DNA of 64,000 nt from a virus. Its lineage: Duplodnaviria; Caudoviricetes. Of the stretch, positions 11,837 through 61,361 are shown one piece after another. Both the position numbers and the translations under genes were made by a program. Position 1 is the stretch's first letter. Each line of letters starts with the position of its first letter. The stretch covers positions 39,234-103,233 of IMG/VR virus record IMGVR_UViG_2791355221_000001. One strand, 5' to 3'. The notes below the pieces were generated by a model. That model searched no databases. It saw nothing but the letters and a program-made list of their open reading frames with translations, and was not told the DNA's origin.

Positions 11837-14092
11837 TCATTTGATTTTGGCAAGTTCTGATTTTCTCTGATCCTCACTTAATACCATCTCATAGCCTTTT
11901 GCCTTAGACCTATGCTTCAACAACCACCCTAAATCAACGAGAGACATCATCATTTCGCTTACTTTCTCTGAGCGCACACCAAGACACTTCTGCAACACAG
12001 TTACACGTGTTTCTCCACTTTCCAATATGGTTCGTTTCAACTTAGTCATATCTTCATCTTCAGGTGCCGCCTCGCTATCTATACTAAGCGTCTCTTTCTT
12101 GAAGTTTCCTTTCCAATATCCTGCCAAATGCTCGATGATTCGGTCTTGCTCATCGTCATCTCTGCCAATCAATGCACCTTGGAATCTCACTAATCCTTGA
12201 ATTCCTTCAAAACTCAGTAGTCCATCACCTCGGCCTAAGAGTTGCATCTTCGGAACTTCATCTAAAGCAACCTTATAACTCGTTCCATCAGCACAAGTGA
12301 AACAAACGCGAGATGGGATATTTCCTTTGATGAGAGAAGTGACTACAGTGGCGAGAGGCTTTTGTGTTGCAACAATGAGATAGATTCCACTAGCCCTCGA
12401 TTTTTGTGCCAACAATATTATTTGTTTTTCTAAGGCTGGCATTGTCATTATCAAATCAGCTAATTCGTCAATGACAATAACGATATAGGGGAGGCGTTCC
12501 TTTTCATTTTTATTAAACTGCTGAATATTTTTATATCCTTTCTTAGCGAGGAGAGTATATCTATCCTCCATTTTTTCGACCATTGCTACAAGTGAAAGGA
12601 ATGCTTCTTTATTATCAGTTACAACGTCCATCACATGAGGGTATTTTCTATAGCCTGCCAACTCAACTTGCTTAGGATCGATAAGTAGCATTTGGAGGTG
12701 TTTTGGCGATCTCAGCAACATCATAATAACTAATAAGCAATTCAGGAACACACTCTTACCTGAACCCTGAGATCCAGCAATAAGCAAATTTCGAATCCGA
12801 GTCAAGTCATCATAAATAATCTCACCATCGGAGCCAATGCCAGCAATAAAAGGTATTTCACTGTTCTTAATGAATTTTTGAAATTCAGGATTCTCTAAAC
12901 AATCTCTGATGAATACTTTTTCTCTTACATCTTGGGGAATGACAACCGAAACTGTTGATGGCTCTTTCCCTTGTTCTATATTAATGTGACTCAATGCGAG
13001 TTCGGTTTGTATATCTGGAATAGACTTTTGCAACTGTGATAATCTAAGTCCTTCAGGTAAATTGAAATTTATTCTTCGAACAGTTGATCCATGTTGAATA
13101 GAGTTAATTTTTATTTGGGTGTCTTTTATCAAGTTTAATTTCTTAAATGCTTTATTGAATCTCTGTGCTACATTTTTATCATCTTCTCTTACAACTCTCT
13201 CACCTCTAGGAAATATTTCGTAAACATGAGAATTTTCATTTGTCTCTATTTCCTCTGGCGCAACCATCAGTTGCTCAATTTTCTCTTCTTCATCAAACGA
13301 AGAGAAGAGGGGCAATAGTTCTGAAACACACATTATTAACTGTGTTGGGACAAATGGAGTTCTCCTCAAATTTATATCTCTAATAAACCTGCTTTTGTTC
13401 AACGGAATTCCCATAATCCAACTGTTCGAGTAATTCATTATTGAAAAACCTAACTTAACCTTTGCTGCTAATTGATTTCTCTTTTCTTTATTTCCACCAT
13501 ATATGGCAAATCTAATATATGTCTCATATCCTACCTCGGTGAACTTCTGTTCGGCTCCTTCGATCATGGGATTCTTTCCAAAAAACTCTTCTTTATTCTG
13601 TAGGAATTCGAGTATACGATGTTGGATAGACCTAACTACTTTATTCTTAGTTGGTAACTCAATTCCACTAATATAACTGTGGTATTGGAGCTTAGAATCG
13701 ATTTGCCAGTCAACACCTTGAACCTTCTTCAATATTATTTGAATGATGATCTTTTCATCAGCTAAAGTTTTATCCGTATATTTGATAATCGAACTCATGA
13801 TATTCTCTTCTAGTTGCATACGAAAAGGAAAACATATTGGCTTATAACTGCTCAACGAATAACATGATAGTTCCTTTAGATCAGTTTGAATCATCAACTT
13901 CGGCTTTCTTTCTAGTTCCAAGTCCTCCATTTGTGAGAACAAGTATTTTTTTACCCTGTGCCTTGTAATAAGCCATTCTAAACCAAGAGTCCCCTCCGAT
14001 GAAGATAGAAGGGACTCAGCATATTCAAATGTGAGATCACCATAAATGAAAGTAGATGTGTCAACTGACGCATTAAAGATGTTTAATTTCAT
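11837..14092 (-). CDS. FtsK/SpoIIIE-family DNA translocase
   Basis: Walker A GSQGSGKS, Walker B IVIVIDE, ATQKP, LLGRGD, C-terminal gamma-like winged helix. Confidence 0.9.
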   Translation of the reverse strand: MKLNIFNASVDTSTFIYGDLTFEYAESLLSSSEGTLGLEWLITRHRVKKYLFSQMEDLELERKPKLMIQTDLKELSCYSLSSYKPICFPFRMQLEENIMSSIIKYTDKTLADEKIIIQIILKKVQGVDWQIDSKLQYHSYISGIELPTKNKVVRSIQHRILEFLQNKEEFFGKNPMIEGAEQKFTEVGYETYIRFAIYGGNKEKRNQLAAKVKLGFSIMNYSNSWIMGIPLNKSRFIRDINLRRTPFVPTQLIMCVSELLPLFSSFDEEEKIEQLMVAPEEIETNENSHVYEIFPRGERVVREDDKNVAQRFNKAFKKLNLIKDTQIKINSIQHGSTVRRINFNLPEGLRLSQLQKSIPDIQTELALSHINIEQGKEPSTVSVVIPQDVREKVFIRDCLENPEFQKFIKNSEIPFIAGIGSDGEIIYDDLTRIRNLLIAGSQGSGKSVFLNCLLVIMMLLRSPKHLQMLLIDPKQVELAGYRKYPHVMDVVTDNKEAFLSLVAMVEKMEDRYTLLAKKGYKNIQQFNKNEKERLPYIVIVIDELADLIMTMPALEKQIILLAQKSRASGIYLIVATQKPLATVVTSLIKGNIPSRVCFTCADGTSYKVALDEVPKMQLLGRGDGLLSFEGIQGLVRFQGALIGRDDDEQDRIIEHLAGYWKGNFKKETLSIDSEAAPEDEDMTKLKRTILESGETRVTVLQKCLGVRSEKVSEMMMSLVDLGWLLKHRSKAKGYEMVLSEDQRKSELAKIK

Positions 14093-39207: not shown

Positions 39208-39296
39208 TACTTGTAAAACGTTATTTTTAGTATATAATACAGTTATAAGATAAAAATAAATCAACTTATATAATATTTATAACGAATTTAAGTAGT

Positions 39297-39755
39297 ATGA
39301 GGGAGTTGAGAAAGATGATTGAGAAAGTAAAGTATGGTGAAGTTTGGTTAGCAGATATTAATGGAGGTATTGGATCAGAAATGTCAGGAATTCGACCTGT
39401 TCTCTGCTGCTCGACGAATTTAGGTAATAGCAGATCAAGTATAGCTCAAGTGATTCCAATTACATCTCAAGTAAAGAAGAAGAGGCTCCCAACGCATGTT
39501 TTTTTGGATTCTAATAAATTTGGACTCGCAGAAAATTCAGTGGCTTTGTGTGAGCAATCAAAATGTATAGAGCAAGGTAGGTTAATCTGCAAAATTACGG
39601 AATTAGATAGTGAGATTATGAAAGACATAGAACACGCAATCAAGATTAATTTTGGAATGGTCAGTCCATTTGAAAATAAAAGAGAGTACCAGTTACAGAA
39701 TGATTTACATAATAAAAATATAATTATTGGAGGAAAAACATTATGTCGTTTATGA
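39297..39755 (+). CDS. mazF: MazF/PemK-family endoribonuclease, no adjacent MazE
   Basis: GEVWLADI..GSE.SGIRPVL...PITSQ..KRLPTHV...SVALCEQ. Confidence 0.85.
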   Translation: MRELRKMIEKVKYGEVWLADINGGIGSEMSGIRPVLCCSTNLGNSRSSIAQVIPITSQVKKKRLPTHVFLDSNKFGLAENSVALCEQSKCIEQGRLICKITELDSEIMKDIEHAIKINFGMVSPFENKREYQLQNDLHNKNIIIGGKTLCRL

Positions 39756-49744: not shown

Positions 49745-49914
49745 TCTGACTTATATGTGATCCTATGAACCTATAATACTCTCAGACATACATTGTGTCA
49801 ATTGATAATAACATTTTAATTATATTCGACATAATCCGACTTGAATGCATGTTATTTTGTGTTGTGCAAGCGTTATGTTGTGTTGTATTATATGATTTAT
49901 AGAGGTGAATTCTA

Positions 49915-51078
49915 ATGGTAAAATCAGATCTGTCTGCTTCAAATAGATTCCTTTCAGATGCTACAAAGAGTTTGCAAGCTACATTTGGTGAATGTGTTAA
50001 GTTAGCAAGAAACCAAAAAGGACTCTCATTAAGAAAGTTGGGAGAGATTACAGGAATTAGTTATTCTCACTTAAGTAAGATTGAGAGAGGAGAACATTCT
50101 CCAGAAAAAGCCACTATCGATAATCTCGCAAACACTCTCGACTTAAATAAAGAAGATCTTTATATTCTGGCAGGTTATGTACCCAAGAGCTATATTATTG
50201 AATCGACAGTGGGTTCTGGTAAATCAATGTTCATAAAACAAATGTTAAAAGGTAAATATGGGGAGAATAACATTAAGTATGTTCCTATAAATGATGAATT
50301 AGATTTAAATGATTTGCATTATAATAATATTTTAAAAACTATATTTGATATGTATCAGAAATTAATTACTGATCAGGACTTTGAAAGTATCTTATCTAAA
50401 CACTATCGAAGTTTCTTTGCAATTCCAGAAGACAGAAAAGAAGAATTTTATAAGATACTGTTACATGAGAAATTTGAATTACTTGATGATAAAGACAAAT
50501 TTAAATTAATAGAAATAGTTGATCTTAGAAATTCTTTGGCGCGCGCTGAAGTAGCTGCAAATCTCGAAGAGAACAACATTAATAACCTCATCATTACTAA
50601 GTCTCTAACTCGTAGCTCTGATAAAATAAACGAACTGATGCAAAATTTTGGAAGTGTAAATCGAATCAATAATAGAGTGGACAATGATAGTTTTATTCAG
50701 ATACCCATTTATGGTGAAATAAAAGCTGGTTATGACTTCCTAGGAGAACAAAATGTGATTGGATATGAAATAACATCAAAGAATTCTATCTCAGATGGTG
50801 AATATTTTTATCTTAAAGTTAAAGGGGACTCAATGATTGACGATGGGATAATTGATGGATGTAAAGTCCTTGTGAAAAAGCAGAGTAATGTAGAGAATGG
50901 AAAAATAGGAGTAGTTATTATTAATAATGAAGAGGCTACACTAAAAAGAGTTTTCTACGAAGGCAACAAAGTAATTTTAATGGCAGCAAATAAAAGTGAG
51001 AACATACTTCCTAGAACATATGATTTAAACGAAGTGCTTATTCAAGGCCAAGTAAAAAGCTATGTGGTAGATCTATAA
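49915..51078 (+). CDS. CI/LexA-like repressor: XRE HTH, insert, S24 peptidase
   Basis: GLSLRKLGEITGISYSHLSKIERG; AG cleavage site, VKGDSM, ATLKR. Confidence 0.85.
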   Translation: MVKSDLSASNRFLSDATKSLQATFGECVKLARNQKGLSLRKLGEITGISYSHLSKIERGEHSPEKATIDNLANTLDLNKEDLYILAGYVPKSYIIESTVGSGKSMFIKQMLKGKYGENNIKYVPINDELDLNDLHYNNILKTIFDMYQKLITDQDFESILSKHYRSFFAIPEDRKEEFYKILLHEKFELLDDKDKFKLIEIVDLRNSLARAEVAANLEENNINNLIITKSLTRSSDKINELMQNFGSVNRINNRVDNDSFIQIPIYGEIKAGYDFLGEQNVIGYEITSKNSISDGEYFYLKVKGDSMIDDGIIDGCKVLVKKQSNVENGKIGVVIINNEEATLKRVFYEGNKVILMAANKSENILPRTYDLNEVLIQGQVKSYVVDL

Positions 51079-54627: not shown

Positions 54628-54835
54628 AATTTATATTCATTGTTCTACACAGTATACACACATAGATTTTTTAAATAAACTCTTCATAATACATACATAA
54701 TATTTAGCATGTTACTTTGCTATTTATTTAATGTGTTTGTGAAGTTTTTTGCATTTGTTTATAGGCTGTAGTTTATTTTTATTATAAATGTGATATATTG
54801 TTAATATGGAAATAATATTGAAAGAAGTGTGATAT

Positions 54836-56155
54836 ATGTTTAGAGATCGCATTGAATTAGAAAATGAGTTAATAGAAGTACTGAATAAAATAAAACATAA
54901 CCGAAAAGACATTTCGAAAATTGATGAAAAACTTTTTGTTAATAACAGGGTTGCCTTAGGGACAATTTCAGACTTAACCAAAGGAGGGCTACAAGAATTA
55001 AATAAAATTGATGAGACATTACTGTGTATTGTTGCTAATGCTGTCTGTGATGTTTCTGGTGAAATAAGAATAAGCCCTATCAATTATTACACTCCAGAAG
55101 AAATTGATTATGCTTTAAACAATGAGTACTTTAATGGTGAAACTTCAGAAATATTGCCTATTACGCTTGAAAATGTACTTATGGCAAAAACTGATGAATA
55201 CATTACTGTAATTAAAATAACCGATTTAGTTCACTGGAAGAATGAAGGACTCATCATTTATGATTATGAGTCTCAGCGGAGTGCTAAATACGTTAGAAAA
55301 CAAAACGGAGTTATTCCAACACCAGACTTAAACAAGCAGCACGTAAAAGAAATATCTGAGCATCAACTGAATGGAACCTACATTGTTGATACTATTACTT
55401 TAAATATCTACTCTGATGAGATTACAGCATTGAACTATAATAACAAAACGAAAACCCTTAAGATAAATAAAGGTGCACGAATTTCTATTACTGATGGCTT
55501 TCATCGACTAGAAGCTTCCGTTCTAACAGTTAAGAATGACCCAGAGACAGAGGAAGTGTTTCAAGTTGCCATCAAGTCATTCGATACTGACAAGGCACAA
55601 AAAACATTTGGACAATACAACACATATCATCCAGTAAGCAAGGAAAGAGTTCAAAGTTTGAAAAAAGAGAAGTTTGGCGACTATGTAGTTGAAAAACTTA
55701 AATATAAATCTGATTTAAAAGGAAAAGTTTCTACAGAGAAAAGGTTGAGTACTTTAGCAAATCATTTAACCACAACTAGTATTTTATCAGAAGCGATAGA
55801 TCATCAATTTAAAATGGAAAGTCAAAAAGATGTGATAGAAGTATCAGAATATCTTGAAAAATTCTTTAATTATTTAATAGGGTCTTTCAAAGATGAGTTT
55901 GTATTAAATCAAAATAAATATCGTGAGACTAGTTTTATTAATAATCAGTATGTCTTTGCGGGCTATGTGGTATTAGCAAGAAGATTTAGGGATGAGAATA
56001 TTCCAATCATTAAATTAGAAGAAGTAATTAAAAACATAAACTTTTCAAAAGAAGTATCAGATTTCTCTGGATTGTTTTCTAAGGGTAAGAAATCTATACC
56101 TTTCATAATTAGTTACTTTGAATCATTGAATCTAAAAGAATATGCTCATAATTGA
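54836..56155 (+). CDS. yopQ: YopQ-like DndB/DGQHR-domain protein
   Basis: ITLN...ITDGFHRL; directly upstream of yopR-like gene as in SPbeta. Confidence 0.75.
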   Translation: MFRDRIELENELIEVLNKIKHNRKDISKIDEKLFVNNRVALGTISDLTKGGLQELNKIDETLLCIVANAVCDVSGEIRISPINYYTPEEIDYALNNEYFNGETSEILPITLENVLMAKTDEYITVIKITDLVHWKNEGLIIYDYESQRSAKYVRKQNGVIPTPDLNKQHVKEISEHQLNGTYIVDTITLNIYSDEITALNYNNKTKTLKINKGARISITDGFHRLEASVLTVKNDPETEEVFQVAIKSFDTDKAQKTFGQYNTYHPVSKERVQSLKKEKFGDYVVEKLKYKSDLKGKVSTEKRLSTLANHLTTTSILSEAIDHQFKMESQKDVIEVSEYLEKFFNYLIGSFKDEFVLNQNKYRETSFINNQYVFAGYVVLARRFRDENIPIIKLEEVIKNINFSKEVSDFSGLFSKGKKSIPFIISYFESLNLKEYAHN

Positions 56156-56170
56156 TGGAGGAAAATAAGA

Positions 56171-57175
56171 ATGACTAAAAATAAGATATATGATTTAAGG
56201 TATTATAATGAGTATCAAAAAATGAGATTTCTCAAAACAGTTTCAGAAAATACAACATACCATCAGTTGTGTTCAAGACTCTTAGGGAGAGTTAGCAGAC
56301 TAGAGGAGATGTACGATAAAGATCTTTATGATTTTAGTTTACCAGAGTTAGAGAGATTTTTTAGATATTTAAATGCTTCAAAAATTAGTACTTCTAGAAT
56401 GAATATTCAAGCAATAAATACTTATATAGAGTGGGCTAATGTACAAAATCTTAGAAAAACAAATATAAATCCCTTAACAATTATTATGGATGACGATTAT
56501 TTTAGAAGCTTTATTGATGAGTCTAAACAAACCATTTTTAGTGAAGAAGAAATTGACGACATTGTTAGAGAATGCAAAAATGCACAGGATGCTGTTATTA
56601 TCCAACTAATGTTTGAGGGTGCATCTGGCACAGGTCTTGATGAGTTGCTTAACCTGCAGAGAAAGAATATTGACTTTAACCATAATCGATTACTCTTGAC
56701 AGACTCAGATGAATCAACAAGAATTTTAGAGGTTAGTGAAAAATGCATGAAGTTGATTCAAGAGGCTCTTGATCAAACTGTATACCAAAAGAATAATGGA
56801 GTTTTTGAAAGTGACAGAGGATCTGCGGAGATTTCATTAGTAGAAAATGATTATGTGGTCAAAAGCACAAAACTTGGTAAATTAAAGTCTTTTGAGAAAG
56901 CAGATAAGTTTTTAGTCCATAGAAGATTGGCAGTATTAGGCGATCCAGACATGTTAGACAAACCATATCTTTCACCTAAGAATATAAAATATTCTGGTAT
57001 GCTCAAAATTGCCAAAGACTATTATCTTAGAGATGGCAGTATTGAGAAACAGTGCGGAGACGAAATAGGAAGTAAATTTAATATCAGGAAATTAAATGGC
57101 GAGTATGTGATTATGCCTTATAAAAGAGACTTTATAAATATAGATACAATTAGAAAAGTATATAATATTGAATGA
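56171..57175 (+). CDS. yopR: YopR/MrpR-like recombinase-fold master repressor
   Basis: YDKDLYDFS, YIEWA, QDAVIIQLMFEGASG, LVENDYVVK, SPKNIKYSG resemble SPbeta YopR; lacks a normal catalytic set. Confidence 0.85.
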   Translation: MTKNKIYDLRYYNEYQKMRFLKTVSENTTYHQLCSRLLGRVSRLEEMYDKDLYDFSLPELERFFRYLNASKISTSRMNIQAINTYIEWANVQNLRKTNINPLTIIMDDDYFRSFIDESKQTIFSEEEIDDIVRECKNAQDAVIIQLMFEGASGTGLDELLNLQRKNIDFNHNRLLLTDSDESTRILEVSEKCMKLIQEALDQTVYQKNNGVFESDRGSAEISLVENDYVVKSTKLGKLKSFEKADKFLVHRRLAVLGDPDMLDKPYLSPKNIKYSGMLKIAKDYYLRDGSIEKQCGDEIGSKFNIRKLNGEYVIMPYKRDFINIDTIRKVYNIE

Positions 57176-57205
57176 GGGCTCCATTAGGAGTTCTCTTCAT
57201 TATAA

Positions 57206-57258
57206 AATAAAAATAACGAAAATAATTATTGACGTATTTTGGGATATCATGGTATATT
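57206..57258 (+). promoter_or_regulatory. Promoter of agr-like cassette with AATAAAAATAA element
   Basis: TTGACG 57229-34; TGG-TATATT extended -10. Confidence 0.65.
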
Positions 57259-57316
57259 AGTAATGGGACGGGAGATATGAGAAATTAGTCCTAGAGGGTG
57301 AGATGAAGCCAAGATA

Positions 57317-57868
57317 ATGGTTCTAAGATTATCAAACTACATAGCAGATTATTTAGTGAATAATTCCATAGGTCAAGAACATAAACATAACACTTTAGTT
57401 TATGGTTTACAGATAATTATTAATCTAATATTGGTTTTTACATTAATATTAGTTTCCTCCATTTTTTTAGACTTATTCAAAGAACTTATGATTTTGTTTA
57501 TTTTTACTGCATTACTTAGGCAAATGTCTGGAGGGTTACATTTAAAGTCTTCAGGTTGGTGTGTCATCCTATCTACAAGTCTTATCTTAGTGGTTCCTTA
57601 TTTACCAAATTATATTCCTGATAATTACTTGCGCGCGGCTGACATAGTTAGTTTTATTACGATTTTAGTATATGCACCAGCAACATTTAAAGTAAATACA
57701 TATAAAAATAGAAAAGCATACTTCAGAATGAAGATGATTTCATTACTAATGGTCGTGATAAACATTGTACTTTTAAAAATGGAACACTTATCAATAGCAA
57801 TGTTTATTCAATCGGTATCTGTCGTGATGGAATATTATAGATTAAAGAAAGTTGGTAGACCGATATGA
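57317..57868 (+). CDS. agrB: AgrB-family peptide-processing membrane protease
   Basis: YGLQII..; LRQMSGGLHLKSSGWC (catalytic His/Cys); YAPA motif; multiple TMs. Confidence 0.9.
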   Translation: MVLRLSNYIADYLVNNSIGQEHKHNTLVYGLQIIINLILVFTLILVSSIFLDLFKELMILFIFTALLRQMSGGLHLKSSGWCVILSTSLILVVPYLPNYIPDNYLRAADIVSFITILVYAPATFKVNTYKNRKAYFRMKMISLLMVVINIVLLKMEHLSIAMFIQSVSVVMEYYRLKKVGRPI

Positions 57869-58542
57869 ATTATTTATTCTCATTCATTTTTTCATCTATT
57901 GAATTTTCCTCATTAATAATATTAACTATGGCTACATTTCGATTCAATATTCTCAACTATAAGAGGGAAGTGATTATTTTATCTCTTATATTATCGTTTT
58001 GTTCAAGCGTATTAGATTCACTACCTTTACAGACCATTGCACCAATAATTCAACTCTTTATATTAATTGTCTTATTTAAAGTTCTAATAAAAGAAAGCAT
58101 TATATTTTCTATTCTTGTTAATGCTCTTGGATTTATTTTCTTCAATGTAATCGAAGCTCTTTACTTTGCGATTCTTCAGTACTATGCCATTGCTGATATT
58201 TCTGATCTAGGAGGCACACACAATACTACAACGTTTACTCTTCAGTTAACGGCTTCATTAATTGTGTTCATTGTCTCAGCAATAATAAGAAATTTAAATT
58301 CTGGTTTCGGTTTTATGGATAAGTTCAGATCAACAAAAAGTAAAATTAAAACAACTAACAAAATTTTAGCAATTATTTCTTTTATCTCGATTCTGTTATT
58401 AAGTGTAAGCCTATATATGTTACTCTCAAACAAAAATTTATACTCTTTTATGGCATTTTTGATATTCGTATTAATTTTTAACATTATATTATTCTACTTT
58501 TATAATAAAAGAGACAAAGAGCAATTTGGCAATGCTAATTAG
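57865..58542 (+). CDS. Multi-TM membrane protein resembling an AgrC sensor domain, without kinase domain
   Basis: About 6-7 hydrophobic helices; ends right after last TM; overlaps agrB stop. Confidence 0.7.
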   Translation: MNYLFSFIFSSIEFSSLIILTMATFRFNILNYKREVIILSLILSFCSSVLDSLPLQTIAPIIQLFILIVLFKVLIKESIIFSILVNALGFIFFNVIEALYFAILQYYAIADISDLGGTHNTTTFTLQLTASLIVFIVSAIIRNLNSGFGFMDKFRSTKSKIKTTNKILAIISFISILLLSVSLYMLLSNKNLYSFMAFLIFVLIFNIILFYFYNKRDKEQFGNAN

Positions 58543-58586
58543 ATTGTACATCGCTCTTTGAAAAACAATAAGGAGGTGTGTTACAA

Positions 58587-58709
58587 ATGAAAAAATATCT
58601 ATCCCTACTAGGAGTAATTAGTTTTGTTGTCATGGTTGCAGATTATTATACAACTGCTTGTGTGTCTATATTTCATGAGCCCGAAATGCCACTAGAACTT
58701 CAAAAGTAA
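58587..58709 (+). CDS. agrD: AgrD-type cyclic autoinducing peptide precursor (40 aa; not in ORF track)
   Basis: AAGGAGGTG RBS; MKKYLSLLGVISFVVMVADYYTTACVSIFHEPEMPLELQK with C-x4-HEPE-x-P. Confidence 0.9.
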   Translation: MKKYLSLLGVISFVVMVADYYTTACVSIFHEPEMPLELQK

Positions 58710-58724
58710 TTACATAGGATACTG

Positions 58725-58757
58725 GGACTCATTATCGTTTAAATGCGATGTGAGTCC
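58725..58757 (+). promoter_or_regulatory. Hairpin between agrD and LytTR gene
   Basis: GGACTCA...TGAGTCC stem without a clear U-tract. Confidence 0.55.
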
Positions 58758-58789
58758 GAATTATAAGTTTGAGATTGGAGGATGATTAT

Positions 58790-59314
58790 ATGAAATTTGA
58801 AGATTGGATAAGCAATATTATAGAACAGAAGTTAAAAATGAAATGTACCAAGATTGAGATAGACAATATAACTAAGGAAATAATTGATGAGTATAGTCAA
58901 ATGAAAAACATATCTTTTGTGAATAAAGAAAATGAGATAGTGTTGGTTGATTTGAATGAAGTGCTATATATAAATGAATATAAAAAGAATATGTTTATGT
59001 TCTATACTCATGAAGGTGCATATGAGCTATTTAACAAGAATATAGACATTTCTTCTCTGATAAATGAAAATTTTATACAAATGGATAAGTCCATATTGGT
59101 TAATATGACAAAAGTAAAAAAATACAACAGTTTCTACGGGGACGTCTATTTTGATGATGTAATTGATGAAAGCTCCATTCGTGTTAGAGTTTTGTTTAAA
59201 AGTATAGAAGTAGTTAAAAGAAAGCTCGGCAAAGATAAGAACATTTATAATGAGGATGATACTCTGTATTCTCCACTAAGCAACAATAAGAAAAAATATA
59301 CATTGTTTCATTAA
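58790..59314 (+). CDS. LytTR DNA-binding domain protein, no recognisable receiver domain
   Basis: LVDLNEVLYI...FYTHEG.Y...FIQMDKSILVNMTKV. Confidence 0.8.
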   Translation: MKFEDWISNIIEQKLKMKCTKIEIDNITKEIIDEYSQMKNISFVNKENEIVLVDLNEVLYINEYKKNMFMFYTHEGAYELFNKNIDISSLINENFIQMDKSILVNMTKVKKYNSFYGDVYFDDVIDESSIRVRVLFKSIEVVKRKLGKDKNIYNEDDTLYSPLSNNKKKYTLFH

Positions 59315-59666
59315 GAAACACTTTATAATATAAAGACAAACTTTATAACTTTCGACATTATACTACAGACATACACAAATGGAAAATGAAGTAAATAACT
59401 TGTTTTACAATAAATCATGAAATAGATCTTATAGATGGCGCGCAACTCAATGTGATAACATATATAATATAAAAGATAACTCACCGATGTTTTTGCACTT
59501 TAGTATGGGTGATGATTACGATTTAATTTATTGACACAGGGGGTCTGTTATTAACTATTTTACTAAGGATTCATTAATTGTGATGAATCTGTATTATTTT
59601 TTTTAACTCTTTTATGGTTGCAAATTTCGCAATTATAAGTAAACATTAAAGCTTGGAGGCTACAAC

Positions 59667-60242
59667 ATGACAACATATAGTGTAGATGGCACACTTATTA
59701 TCCCTTTTAACATATTGCAAAAAGCGCCGAATTTGCAAGATCTAATGAGCAATCTTTTACATGAATGCGACATTGAAACAGTCTCTATTAAAACGAAAAA
59801 CGGAGACTCGTACATACTAAATCATTATGACTACATAGATATTGAATATAAAGAAAAGAATATTCATGAGATTTAAACCATGTGAGCTGCTTGTTAGATA
59901 GGCAGCTTTTTTAATATATAAAGTAAAAATAAAATTAATAGTTGATAATGAGATGCTGCTGTGTTATATTTACATTACAGAGAAGGAAAATATCGGAAGA
60001 CAATAAAAGCATTCATTTATTGGAAGAGGAGACGTATGGAAAAGAAGATTACATATAAAAAATACTCAAGTGATGGGTCATTAGTTGAGTGCTATTATGG
60101 AGATATGCTTTTTGCCTTAGTGAGTAAGGTGTCTCAGAGCAACTGGAGAGGCAATTTAACAACAGATCCCAATTATGTGCTCACCAGAAGTACCAGATCT
60201 GAATTAATACATGAGCTGCTAAAAGAGTGCCTAAGCAAATGA
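59667..60242 (+). CDS. Two hypothetical proteins (59667-59876, 60036-60242)
   Basis: ORFs with GGAGG/GAGGAG RBS. Confidence 0.6.
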
Positions 60243-60292
60243 AATCGTTGTTTCATGGGAATATGGAAGACAAGAGAAAGGGTGTAAGATTT

Positions 60293-60745
60293 ATGACTAT
60301 TAAGGTAATTGAGGGAGACCTATTGAGTGCTGAAGAAGACATTATTGCACATCAAGTAAATTGTATGGGCGTAATGGGTTCAGGCATTGCTAAAGTAATC
60401 CGCAATAAGTATCCAGAAGTATATGACCAATATTTAAATGAGTTTAAAGGGAAATCAAAAATTGAATTGTTGGGTGAATGTCAGGTTATCAAAACTAGTG
60501 TTGGAAAATATGTAGCTAATTTGTTTGGGCAGTTCAATTTTGGTGGAGATGGTAAGAAATATACTGATGAGGAAGCATTGAAAGGCGCGCTAATAAGTCT
60601 GAAAGAGTTTGCTGTAGAAAATGGTCTTAGTGTGGCGCTGCCCTTTAAAATAGGCAGTGACCGCGGTGGAGCAGACTGGAATGTGGTTTATGGAATTATC
60701 GGTGAGGTTTTTGCTGAATATAGTGTTACATTGTATCGATTATAA
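60293..60745 (+). CDS. Macrodomain (ADP-ribose hydrolase-like) protein
   Basis: GDLL...IAHQVNCMGVMGSGIA...PFKIGSDRGGADW. Confidence 0.85.
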   Translation: MTIKVIEGDLLSAEEDIIAHQVNCMGVMGSGIAKVIRNKYPEVYDQYLNEFKGKSKIELLGECQVIKTSVGKYVANLFGQFNFGGDGKKYTDEEALKGALISLKEFAVENGLSVALPFKIGSDRGGADWNVVYGIIGEVFAEYSVTLYRL

Positions 60746-60804: not shown

Positions 60805-61361
60805 ATGTCGAAACTAAAAATTGGCACTAAAGTCTTTTTAAAGCCTATCAACAACAAAGCTAGGTCTGGAAATATACCAGTTCAGGAGTATGAAGTGAAA
60901 AGTGTTGCTAGAAAATATTTTGAGGTATGGCAAGACGAGAGAGAAACTAGCGCATTAAAATTCTATATTGAAAACAATAGCCATGTTACAAAGTATTCTC
61001 CTGATTGGAAGCTGTACTTCACTATGCAAGAGATTGTGTATCTAAAGAAGAATTTGAGAGCCTATTTAAACACTGGGTTGATTCGAATGGATGGGAATAT
61101 GAGGGATCATTTATTAACGTGGATAAACAGAATTCTACGAGTGCATGGACTGAGATGGATGATTTAAATTTAGCCGAAATGGTTCTTCGTAGCATAAGAG
61201 AGAATAGAAAACTTAAAGAGGGGTTCGAAGAAGTATCTGAAAAGATCGGACGAACAACAAGTGCTTGCGCGAACAGGTGGAATTCTTTTTTGAAGTATCA
61301 GTATCAAGCAGCTATTCAAATAGCAAAAGCTCAAGCAGACAGAAAGAGGCAAATGAAATAG
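60805..61361 (+). pseudogene. Out-of-frame junction of a phage protein and a second RsfA-like gene
   Basis: Overlapping ORFs 60805-61167 and 61005-61361; second contains AWTEMDD..LAEMVL..RTTSACANRWN. Confidence 0.55.

Follow-up and report, generated by a model that had tools for sequence, protein, structure and literature searches.

Arbitrium, known from the SPbeta phages of Bacillus, is the phage-made peptide language named in the available excerpts of reviews. The agr-type route of signalling has likewise been noticed in phages: Hargreaves et al. 2014 (PMC3901668) mention kinase-less agr cassettes, in which the HATPase domain is missing, in phages Davies, Emery, and Abouo. Each comprises AgrB, a small peptide resembling AgrD, and AgrC-like membrane proteins, one or two in number, and lies in a temperate phage close to integrase and XRE genes; the paper calls all three Paenibacillus phages, while the record of Emery gives Brevibacillus laterosporus as its host. 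The excerpts of that paper dealing with these cassettes do not mention a LytTR gene and report no test of their function. Elsewhere, phage-genomics papers list an AgrB gene in tables only, and a 2025 review, in its available part, speaks of agr homologues in phages in general terms only. For a receiver-less LytTR regulator with a membrane partner, the sole signalling mode described in the available part of PMC6193735 is that of the LytTR regulatory systems (LRS) such as Streptococcus mutans HdrRM and BrsRM, whose membrane protein acts as an inhibitor of the regulator. Here we present an agr-type cassette that directly follows the yopQ and mrpR genes (together at 54836-59314) on a 64,000-nucleotide stretch of a Caudoviricetes phage (IMG/VR record IMGVR_UViG_2791355221_000001, positions 39,234 to 103,233), hereafter the window.

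The identity of the cassette's parts is firm. We give a little under an even chance to the reading that they form a self-contained agr-type operon in the lysogeny-control region, by which the phage senses how dense its kin are and enters or leaves lysogeny accordingly; that the cassette plays some part in the lysis-lysogeny decision is plausible. Apart from the mention of 2014, our literature search, with supplementary gene tables lying outside it, found no primary or functional study of agr cassettes that are linked to MrpR or lack the kinase.

The cassette and its parts

The source genome measures 9.18 Mb at ~46% GC, and the window corresponds to C1:71453-135452. It lies inside a low-GC island (~30-37% GC) of roughly 165 kb, at about C1:33,000-198,000, which we read as an SPbeta-like prophage of ~165 kb in a Paenibacillus-type host. 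The genes of the locus, with lengths in amino acids (aa), are:

54836-56155, + strand: YopQ-like DndB/DGQHR-domain protein, 439 aa (PF14072, E 5.7e-15; phrog_5732, E 2.9e-105)
56171-57175, + strand: MrpR/YopR-type master repressor homologue with a tyrosine-recombinase fold, 334 aa (PF22822, E 5.4e-20; PF22823, E 4.5e-22)
57317-57868, + strand: AgrB-type peptidase/cyclase, 183 aa (PF04647, 91.5 bits against a cut-off of 23)
57865-58542, + strand: kinase-less 7-helix membrane protein, 225 aa, resembling the sensor half of AgrC/ComD
58587-58709, + strand: AgrD precursor, 40 aa from ATG 58587 (43 aa from GTG 58578) (TIGR04223)
58790-59314, + strand: LytTR-only protein, 174 aa from ATG 58790 (181 aa from TTG 58769) (PF04397, 32.1 bits, residues 56-122)

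An earlier sequence-only reading of this DNA had proposed these very parts, and the list of open reading frames (ORFs) together with the family matches places all of them where it had put them: the cassette stands directly after yopQ-mrpR and is complete, with a producer, a kinase-less sensor, and a LytTR-only regulator. Since both halves of MrpR are matched by Pfam and the preceding gene encodes the DndB-like YopQ, the pair belongs to an SPbeta-type lysogeny module; the identity of this MrpR to YopR of SPbeta, phi3T, and the Goe phages is 28.5-31%. The starts at ATG 58587 for AgrD and ATG 58790 for the LytTR protein are favoured because good ribosome-binding sites precede them, that of AgrD (AAGGAGG) ending 9 nt before the start codon.

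The AgrB protein finds no sequence match among solved structures, and carries the residues expected of its family: R68, G72, H75, C82, and P121 are invariant in all 30 aligned AgrB proteins (window and related loci). H75 and C82 lie seven residues apart, in agreement with the His/Cys pair of agr systems; we take them to correspond to the catalytic pair H77 and C84 of Staphylococcus aureus AgrB. The small ORF scores 24.2 bits with the autoinducer model TIGR04223, above its cut-off of 19, and 18.6 bits with the Pfam AgrD model, below that model's cut-off of 22.7. Its ring cysteine lies five residues before HEPEMPLEL, giving the predicted ring CVSIF followed by HEPEMPLELQK, so that sequence and TIGR04223 score both agree with the 40-aa AgrD and the ring claimed for it at the outset.

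The 225-aa membrane protein has no Pfam or NCBIfam match and no kinase domain. Its AlphaFold2 (AF2) model (pLDDT 89.3) consists of seven helices, upholding the earlier description of a kinase-less protein with multiple transmembrane segments, and aligns to the N-terminal halves of HATPase_c_5 kinases of 424-446 aa in the ESM Atlas (TM by query 0.68-0.71). The protein is thus modelled like the sensor half of an AgrC/ComD kinase without the kinase, and we call it the sensor for short; it is not an AgrC in the sense of an HPK10, HATPase_c_5 kinase, the structural match being limited to the sensor half. A word-indexed homologue search returned only the protein itself and one other at 73% identity, and a full HMMER search was needed to recover the family, with 161 cluster representatives. 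Because 150 of these span 93-293 aa, there is no relative of kinase length among those 150. The sensor has a conserved K-R-D-K-E-E tail.

The last gene encodes the LytTR-only regulator as predicted, with PF04397 as its sole domain and no receiver, and it is therefore not an AgrA, which combines a receiver with LytTR. The AF2 model (pLDDT 83.1) shows helices at residues 3-15 and 21-37 and then a beta fold that Foldseek matches to the LytTR domains of AgrA and ComE with probability 1.00; the 37-aa N-terminal helical hairpin stands where a receiver would sit, and the model has no space for such a domain. As in the LRS, a receiver-less LytTR regulator and a membrane protein share one operon. A second, shorter LytTR-only gene (135-167 aa) occurs in four related loci (L036, L038, L039, and L085) some ~400-600 nt after the first and past the box element described below; it has no counterpart in the window.

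The same set of genes could be read as a peptide toxin/immunity locus, composed of an AgrD-like antimicrobial peptide (a ribosomally synthesised and post-translationally modified peptide), a membrane immunity factor, and a LytTR bacteriocin regulator. A membrane protein without a kinase domain would suit such a locus, and bacteriocin loci are often under LytTR control, as the available part of PMC6193735 states. We regard this as very improbable, given that AgrD exceeds the cut-off of the autoinducer model, that the model of the membrane protein matches AgrC/ComD sensor halves, and that the operon holds neither an exporter nor other bacteriocin genes.

Linkage to MrpR and exchange of the cassette

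That agr cassettes recur behind yopR-type genes was borne out in three sets of loci. Among the 20 full-length MrpR loci of the host family, left after removal of partial-domain frames of ~124-165 aa and of one contig-cut copy, nine have agrB and the sensor gene immediately behind MrpR, and all nine share one layout: YopQ-MrpR, a promoter-like site (mostly after a hairpin and T-run), then AgrB-sensor-small ORF-LytTR. A YopQ homologue of 431-483 aa precedes MrpR in the eight mapped relatives with this agrB-sensor-LytTR order. A search with an MrpR profile yielded ten named Paenibacillus records (eight already-mapped loci and two new), and all ten carry the cassette, a set that is biased because the search pattern was derived from cassette-linked MrpRs. 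In IMG/VR, the cassette stands behind MrpR in 9 of 15 MrpR contigs, seven of these nine having the other gene order. Two orders are found overall, agrB-sensor-(agrD)-LytTR and sensor-agrB, and AgrB adjoins the sensor (±1.5 kb) in 29 of the 30 sensor-family loci examined. PF22823 matches 28 of the 136 host-family genomes.

Sequenced phages offer few relatives. The whole stretch has no blastn match among them, tblastn leads from AgrB to phage Emery alone and from the sensor to none, and a scan of viral contigs with AgrB alone confirmed no relative. In a sensor tree, which held no Emery protein, a branch marked 97* separates 24 chromosomal rows from 12 others, namely nine phage rows and the loci L002, L016, and L040. 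The window groups with the agrB-first loci, and the chromosomal rows in which agrB was located have the sensor-first order.

How the cassette moves can be seen in two related loci, L086 and L087. Their YopQ proteins are 95.8% and their MrpR proteins 96.4% identical, as against 32% for AgrB, 26% for the sensor, and 35% for the LytTR protein. Counted from the mrpR start, their DNA is 92.8% identical as far as +1173 and shows no detectable similarity from there to +3087; identity resumes at 82.5% exactly behind the LytTR stop codon. From the contrast between ~96% and 26-35% identity and from the sharp DNA borders we conclude that the cassette was swapped as a unit. The same tendency is seen more widely: in the best 20 of 55 pairs by MrpR similarity (11 phage loci), MrpR is 48-96% identical and the cassette proteins 20-46%. 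The surveyed peptides are diverse as well, which the sequence-only reading had thought worth following; the ring residues differ between phages, and an x-E/K-P-x-x-P tail is retained. The AgrD model was passed by the window's peptide and by four of ten further small ORFs scanned, three of the ten giving weak scores and three no match.

A phage-specific lysogeny channel fits these findings because the position beside the master repressor is kept, whole blocks are exchanged, and the peptides are diverse. It is possible, though we would sooner doubt than assert it, that SPbeta-like Paenibacillus phages use a second, independent language in which a cyclic AgrD-type peptide acts on a kinase-free 7-helix receptor that gates a LytTR regulator by contact and so sets lysogeny and induction, with whole cassettes swapped as private dialects in the manner of arbitrium alleles.

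The window had appeared to lack an AimR-like receptor, and the rest of the genome lacks one too: over the whole 9.18 Mb the best match to NF038310 (AimR) reaches 21.8 bits against a cut-off of 70. AimR stayed below the cut-off in all 16 genomes searched, namely the source genome, five further cassette-bearing genomes, and ten cassette-less MrpR genomes; three cassette-bearing genomes lay outside this sample, and the B. subtilis genome, used as a control, scored above the cut-off. Arbitrium as defined in Bacillus is absent from the tested genomes. The mutual exclusivity with aimR suggested earlier proved uninformative, AimR being below the cut-off in the ten cassette-less genomes as well, and a replacement of arbitrium by the cassette cannot be argued from exclusivity, because the absence of AimR does not track the cassette.

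The source genome holds two AgrB genes in total, that of the phage and one on contig C56. The latter belongs to another kinase-less cassette with identical gene order (C56:176260-179662, locus L002), which lies beside a tyrosine recombinase and an HTH/ImmA-like gene (HTH, helix-turn-helix), encodes a peptide unlike the phage's, and has TTCGACA boxes in tandem past its LytTR gene; this is probably another mobile element. The recombinase upstream of it was considered as an MrpR and proved to be an ordinary Phage_integrase match. This second cassette bears on the idea that the phage cassette interferes, its peptide or sensor blocking or eavesdropping on resident agr-like cassettes, be they the host's or those of rival prophages. 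The C56 cassette, built in the same way, speaks for that idea, and the alleles of staphylococcal agr are known to cross-inhibit one another. On the other side stand the completeness of the phage cassette, which has a sensor and a regulator of its own, the unlikeness of the two peptides, and a genome without any AgrB beyond these two; interference therefore appears improbable to us. The jamming of host agr-like signalling that the sequence-only reading had offered as an option is weakened accordingly, as the single other AgrB lies in a mobile-looking region.

Control elements and the possible role in lysogeny

The elements around the cassette, together with a second repressor gene upstream, are:

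49825-49850, + strand: tandem TTCGACA / TCCGACT boxes then ATGCAT, ~65-90 nt upstream of the HTH+S24 repressor gene; outside 54836-59314
49915-51078, + strand: LexA/CI-type repressor, HTH_3 + Peptidase_S24, 387 aa (PF00717, E 1.6e-20; PF01381, E 3.8e-11; phrog_4, transcriptional repressor)
54773-54783, - strand: inverted copy of AATAAAAATAA, 53 nt upstream of yopQ
57174-57195, + strand: terminator-like hairpin right behind mrpR, from sequence
57206-57216, + strand: repeated 11-mer AATAAAAATAA, candidate operator, 12 nt upstream of the promoter-like site
57229-57258, + strand: cassette promoter-like site TTGACG-18-TATATT with TG-extended -10, from sequence
59320-59348, + strand: direct repeat ACTTTATAA directly behind the LytTR stop codon, two copies, period 20 bp; this phage only
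59351-59396, + strand: conserved post-cassette element as found in the window: one TTCGACA box, a degenerate second copy, then GTAAAT after 33 nt

The cassette thus has a promoter-like site separate from mrpR, behind its terminator, and this site carries the repeated element at 57206-57216, as had been stated. The eight relatives keep the same layout of -35 and TG-extended -10, and most of them have a hairpin with a T-run in the corresponding position. The 11-mer is a feature of this phage: AATAAAAATAA occurs 22 times in the window where 0.83 copies are expected (none of 100 shuffles reached 22), and 33 times in the ~165-kb prophage compared with 58 in the other 8.68 Mb, and it is nearly absent from the loci of related phages. 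The 22 sites include 11775, 23897, 26019, and 57206; around ten of the copies are placed closely upstream of -35-like hexamers, and others immediately ahead of ribosome-binding sites. SPbeta has a repeated element of its own, SPBRE, to which MrpR binds at ten promoters, that of aimR included (PMC10516654, available part), and the presence of AATAAAAATAA at the cassette promoter is a suggestive parallel.

Behind the cassette, every cassette locus examined has one to three (A)TTCGACA boxes after the LytTR stop and then GTAAA, which is invariant in the alignment of nine loci. The tandem copy at 49825 is better than the one at 59351 and is the best element of this kind in the genome. The composite of tandem boxes and ATGCAT occurs at two places in the 9.18-Mb genome, at 49825 and behind the C56 LytTR gene, and the S24 repressor encoded at 49915 is a possible link between the TTCGACA boxes and lysogeny control. 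By its domains (HTH_3/Peptidase_S24) it suggests that the phage may possess two repressor systems, MrpR and an SOS-cleavable one.

Several neighbouring features are recorded here on their own account. In five IMG/VR loci (L109, L110, L112, L113, and L115) a TATAAT and a LexA-type GAAC-N4-GTTC lie just upstream of tandem ATTCGACA boxes, ~100 nt past the LytTR stop, so that the cassette in these loci looks like it abuts an SOS-controlled promoter. No LexA box was found near the window's cassette; the window contains two matches where 0.60 are expected, at 13541 and 39196. The latter (GAACATTAGTTC) precedes a MazF/PemK-looking frame of 152 aa at 39297-39755, and a single TTCGACA box lies 260 nt further upstream (38935). 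Downstream of the cassette the window encodes a Macro-domain protein at 60227-60745 (PF01661; phrog_335, 'phosphatase') and a ProQ-C-terminal-like protein at 60805-61167. An AimX-like RNA was sought behind the cassette and rejected, there being no relevant Rfam match and a fold z-score of 0.01 for 59390-59612.

If the cassette does serve the lysogeny switch, the following course may be proposed. AgrB would cleave and cyclise AgrD to a CVSIF thiolactone peptide that accumulates outside infected or lysogenic cells and binds the membrane sensor. The sensor would then hold or release the LytTR protein by direct contact and without phosphotransfer, as in HdrRM and BrsRM, the AgrB/AgrD peptide supplying the missing ligand for an LRS-type pair of membrane protein and regulator. 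Once freed, the regulator would alter the transcription of phage switch genes, with the TTCGACA boxes behind the cassette and before the 49915 repressor gene as candidate sites, and the choice of or exit from lysogeny would be tuned to kin density as it is by arbitrium.

A number of observations weigh against a density-sensing lysogeny switch of this kind. As to the signal, the small ORFs of L036, L086, L087, L098, and L102 have no Cys or Ser five residues before their H-x-P tail; at the ring position two have Lys and the others Pro or Val, so that these AgrD-like peptides may be linear or closed in another way. As to the receptor, comparison of the sensor with an AgrC-like kinase of the same genome gave an hhalign probability of 0.2 and a single BLASTP match at E 0.001, that is, weak homology. 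Solved structures returned no sequence match for the sensor profile and no Foldseek match at E <= 0.001 for the sensor model; because of this the likeness to AgrC rests on the ESM Atlas models and one weak BLASTP match. As to the output, no LytTR-type direct repeats were found upstream of the -35 at the cassette promoter in the window and eight relatives, and hence there is no sign of autoinduction there. The boxes, too, lose weight as an operator owned by the cassette: single ATTCGACA boxes lie directly behind MrpR in the cassette-less contigs L116, L118, and L120, and tandem boxes are absent from all 23 chromosomal cassette loci. For both reasons they may be a backbone feature of the phage, with MrpR or some other factor, and not LytTR, as their binder, and by their distribution they look like part of the phage switch region into which the cassette is inserted.

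The irregular peptides of these relatives also raise the question of whether the cassette is a decaying, functionless remnant. We find this scarcely credible. In none of the 11 isolate-genome cassettes is the AgrB, sensor, or LytTR frame interrupted, the catalytic residues of AgrB are conserved, the ratio of nonsynonymous to synonymous substitutions (dN/dS) in the cassette genes is 0.28-0.36, and the ribosome-binding sites and promoter signals are strong.

Further opposing observations come from the distribution of the cassette. The sensor-family profile matches 118 of 136 host-family genomes, often several times per genome, and because the family is so common on host chromosomes, the cassette could be ordinary host-type quorum sensing carried as cargo. 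Nor is it a fixed companion of MrpR: the slot holds unrelated cargo, read by eye, in the remaining 11 of the 20 full-length loci, six of the 15 IMG/VR loci have no cassette behind MrpR, and Brevibacillus phage Sundance has YopQ and MrpR and no cassette. In this alternative the cassette would bring about lysogenic conversion, altering the host (kin recognition among lysogens, sporulation, competence, or secondary metabolism) with no input into lysis and lysogeny. The kinase-less cassette family on host chromosomes and the other cargo in the slot speak for it, as do the PHROGs category of the sensor family (phrog_15604, 'moron, auxiliary metabolic gene and host takeover') and the near-consensus stand-alone promoter, a typical trait of morons. 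Frequent relatives on chromosomes and a slot of changing content agree with a moron no less well than the kept position, the block exchange, and the diverse peptides agree with a phage-specific channel. We hold host-directed cargo to be the less likely of the two readings, and three points speak against it: the place beside the master repressor is kept among phages whose proteins are only 25-45% identical, the exchange of whole blocks between 96%-identical backbones better fits a private phage channel than a host-directed trait, and AgrB in the host is limited to one other, mobile-looking locus.

Should the cassette steer lysogeny, it would represent a second phage peptide language built from unrelated parts, in which the signal is a cyclic peptide, the receptor sits in the membrane, and nothing is phosphorylated. 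The kinase-less agr cassettes so common in Paenibacillaceae would gain a natural function, and the LytTR regulatory systems, for most of which no signal is known, a ligand-gated example. Because near-identical phages exchange the block, allele pairs for the study of specificity already exist in nature. If instead the cassette is host-directed cargo, it still represents a widespread signalling architecture for which we found no primary study.

Comparison with known signalling systems

The idea of agr signalling by a phage stands in that the MrpR-linked cassette is complete, and it is not fully new, since kinase-less phage cassettes were mentioned in 2014. New compared with the literature found are the sharp allele swap between 96%-identical backbones, the occurrence of both gene orders at the MrpR slot, and the box element with a copy before the S24 repressor gene.

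Of the phages mentioned in 2014, the comparison takes up Emery. Profile matches identify its gp53 and gp54 as sensor paralogues, gp55 as AgrB, and gp57 as a LytTR-only protein, in addition to a 38-aa peptide. Like the window phage, this temperate phage thus combines a kinase-less sensor, AgrB, a small peptide, and a LytTR-only protein, and it does so near integrase and XRE genes. It differs in its switch, which is of XRE type with no MrpR within the 10.5 kb inspected of its 58.6 kb, in having the sensor before agrB, and in a LytTR protein of 121 aa without the N-terminal hairpin. Its AgrB is ~27% identical to that of the window, whose sensor finds nothing in Emery by tblastn. A further Emery protein near the agr cassette, gp60 (L106 6697-7974), is a 425-aa 'DNA binding protein' with an N-terminal HTH that, by eye, could be a repeat-containing receptor.

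With phiCDHM1 of Clostridioides difficile the locus shares a phage-borne set of agrB, agrD, and sensor (agr3; PMC3901668, available part). That phage encodes a full AgrC kinase (453 aa) and no regulator, whereas the window phage encodes a regulator and no kinase. The canonical agrBDCA system agrees with the cassette in the His/Cys pair of AgrB, in the ring Cys of AgrD five residues before an acidic/proline tail, in a polytopic sensor, in a LytTR output domain that is modelled like that of AgrA, and in hypervariable alleles. The phage cassette departs from it in its order (B-sensor-D-LytTR), in having no AgrA-type repeats at its own promoter, and in a LytTR protein that varies along with the sensor. 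As the cassette lacks both a histidine kinase and a receiver domain, there is no phosphorelay.

The LRS come nearer to the output side of the cassette, which likewise pairs a receiver-less LytTR regulator with a membrane protein in one operon. Its membrane partner, however, is a 7-helix AgrC-like protein, and no AgrB/AgrD peptide module is named among the LRS parts in the available text of PMC6193735. The direct repeats of the LRS lie just upstream of their own -35, whereas in the phage the repeats are downstream of the operon.

Arbitrium (AimR-AimP-AimX) comes nearer in its setting. Both are phage-encoded secreted-peptide systems, or would be in the case of the cassette, in the same lysogeny region as yopQ-mrpR, and both have many mutually distinct alleles among related phages; the repeated element at the aimR promoter in SPbeta has its likeness in AATAAAAATAA at the cassette promoter. 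The proteins, by contrast, are unrelated: the cassette has no tetratricopeptide-repeat (TPR) receptor, no AimP, and no AimX-like RNA found behind it, and its peptide would be cyclic and sensed at the membrane, where that of arbitrium is imported by Opp.

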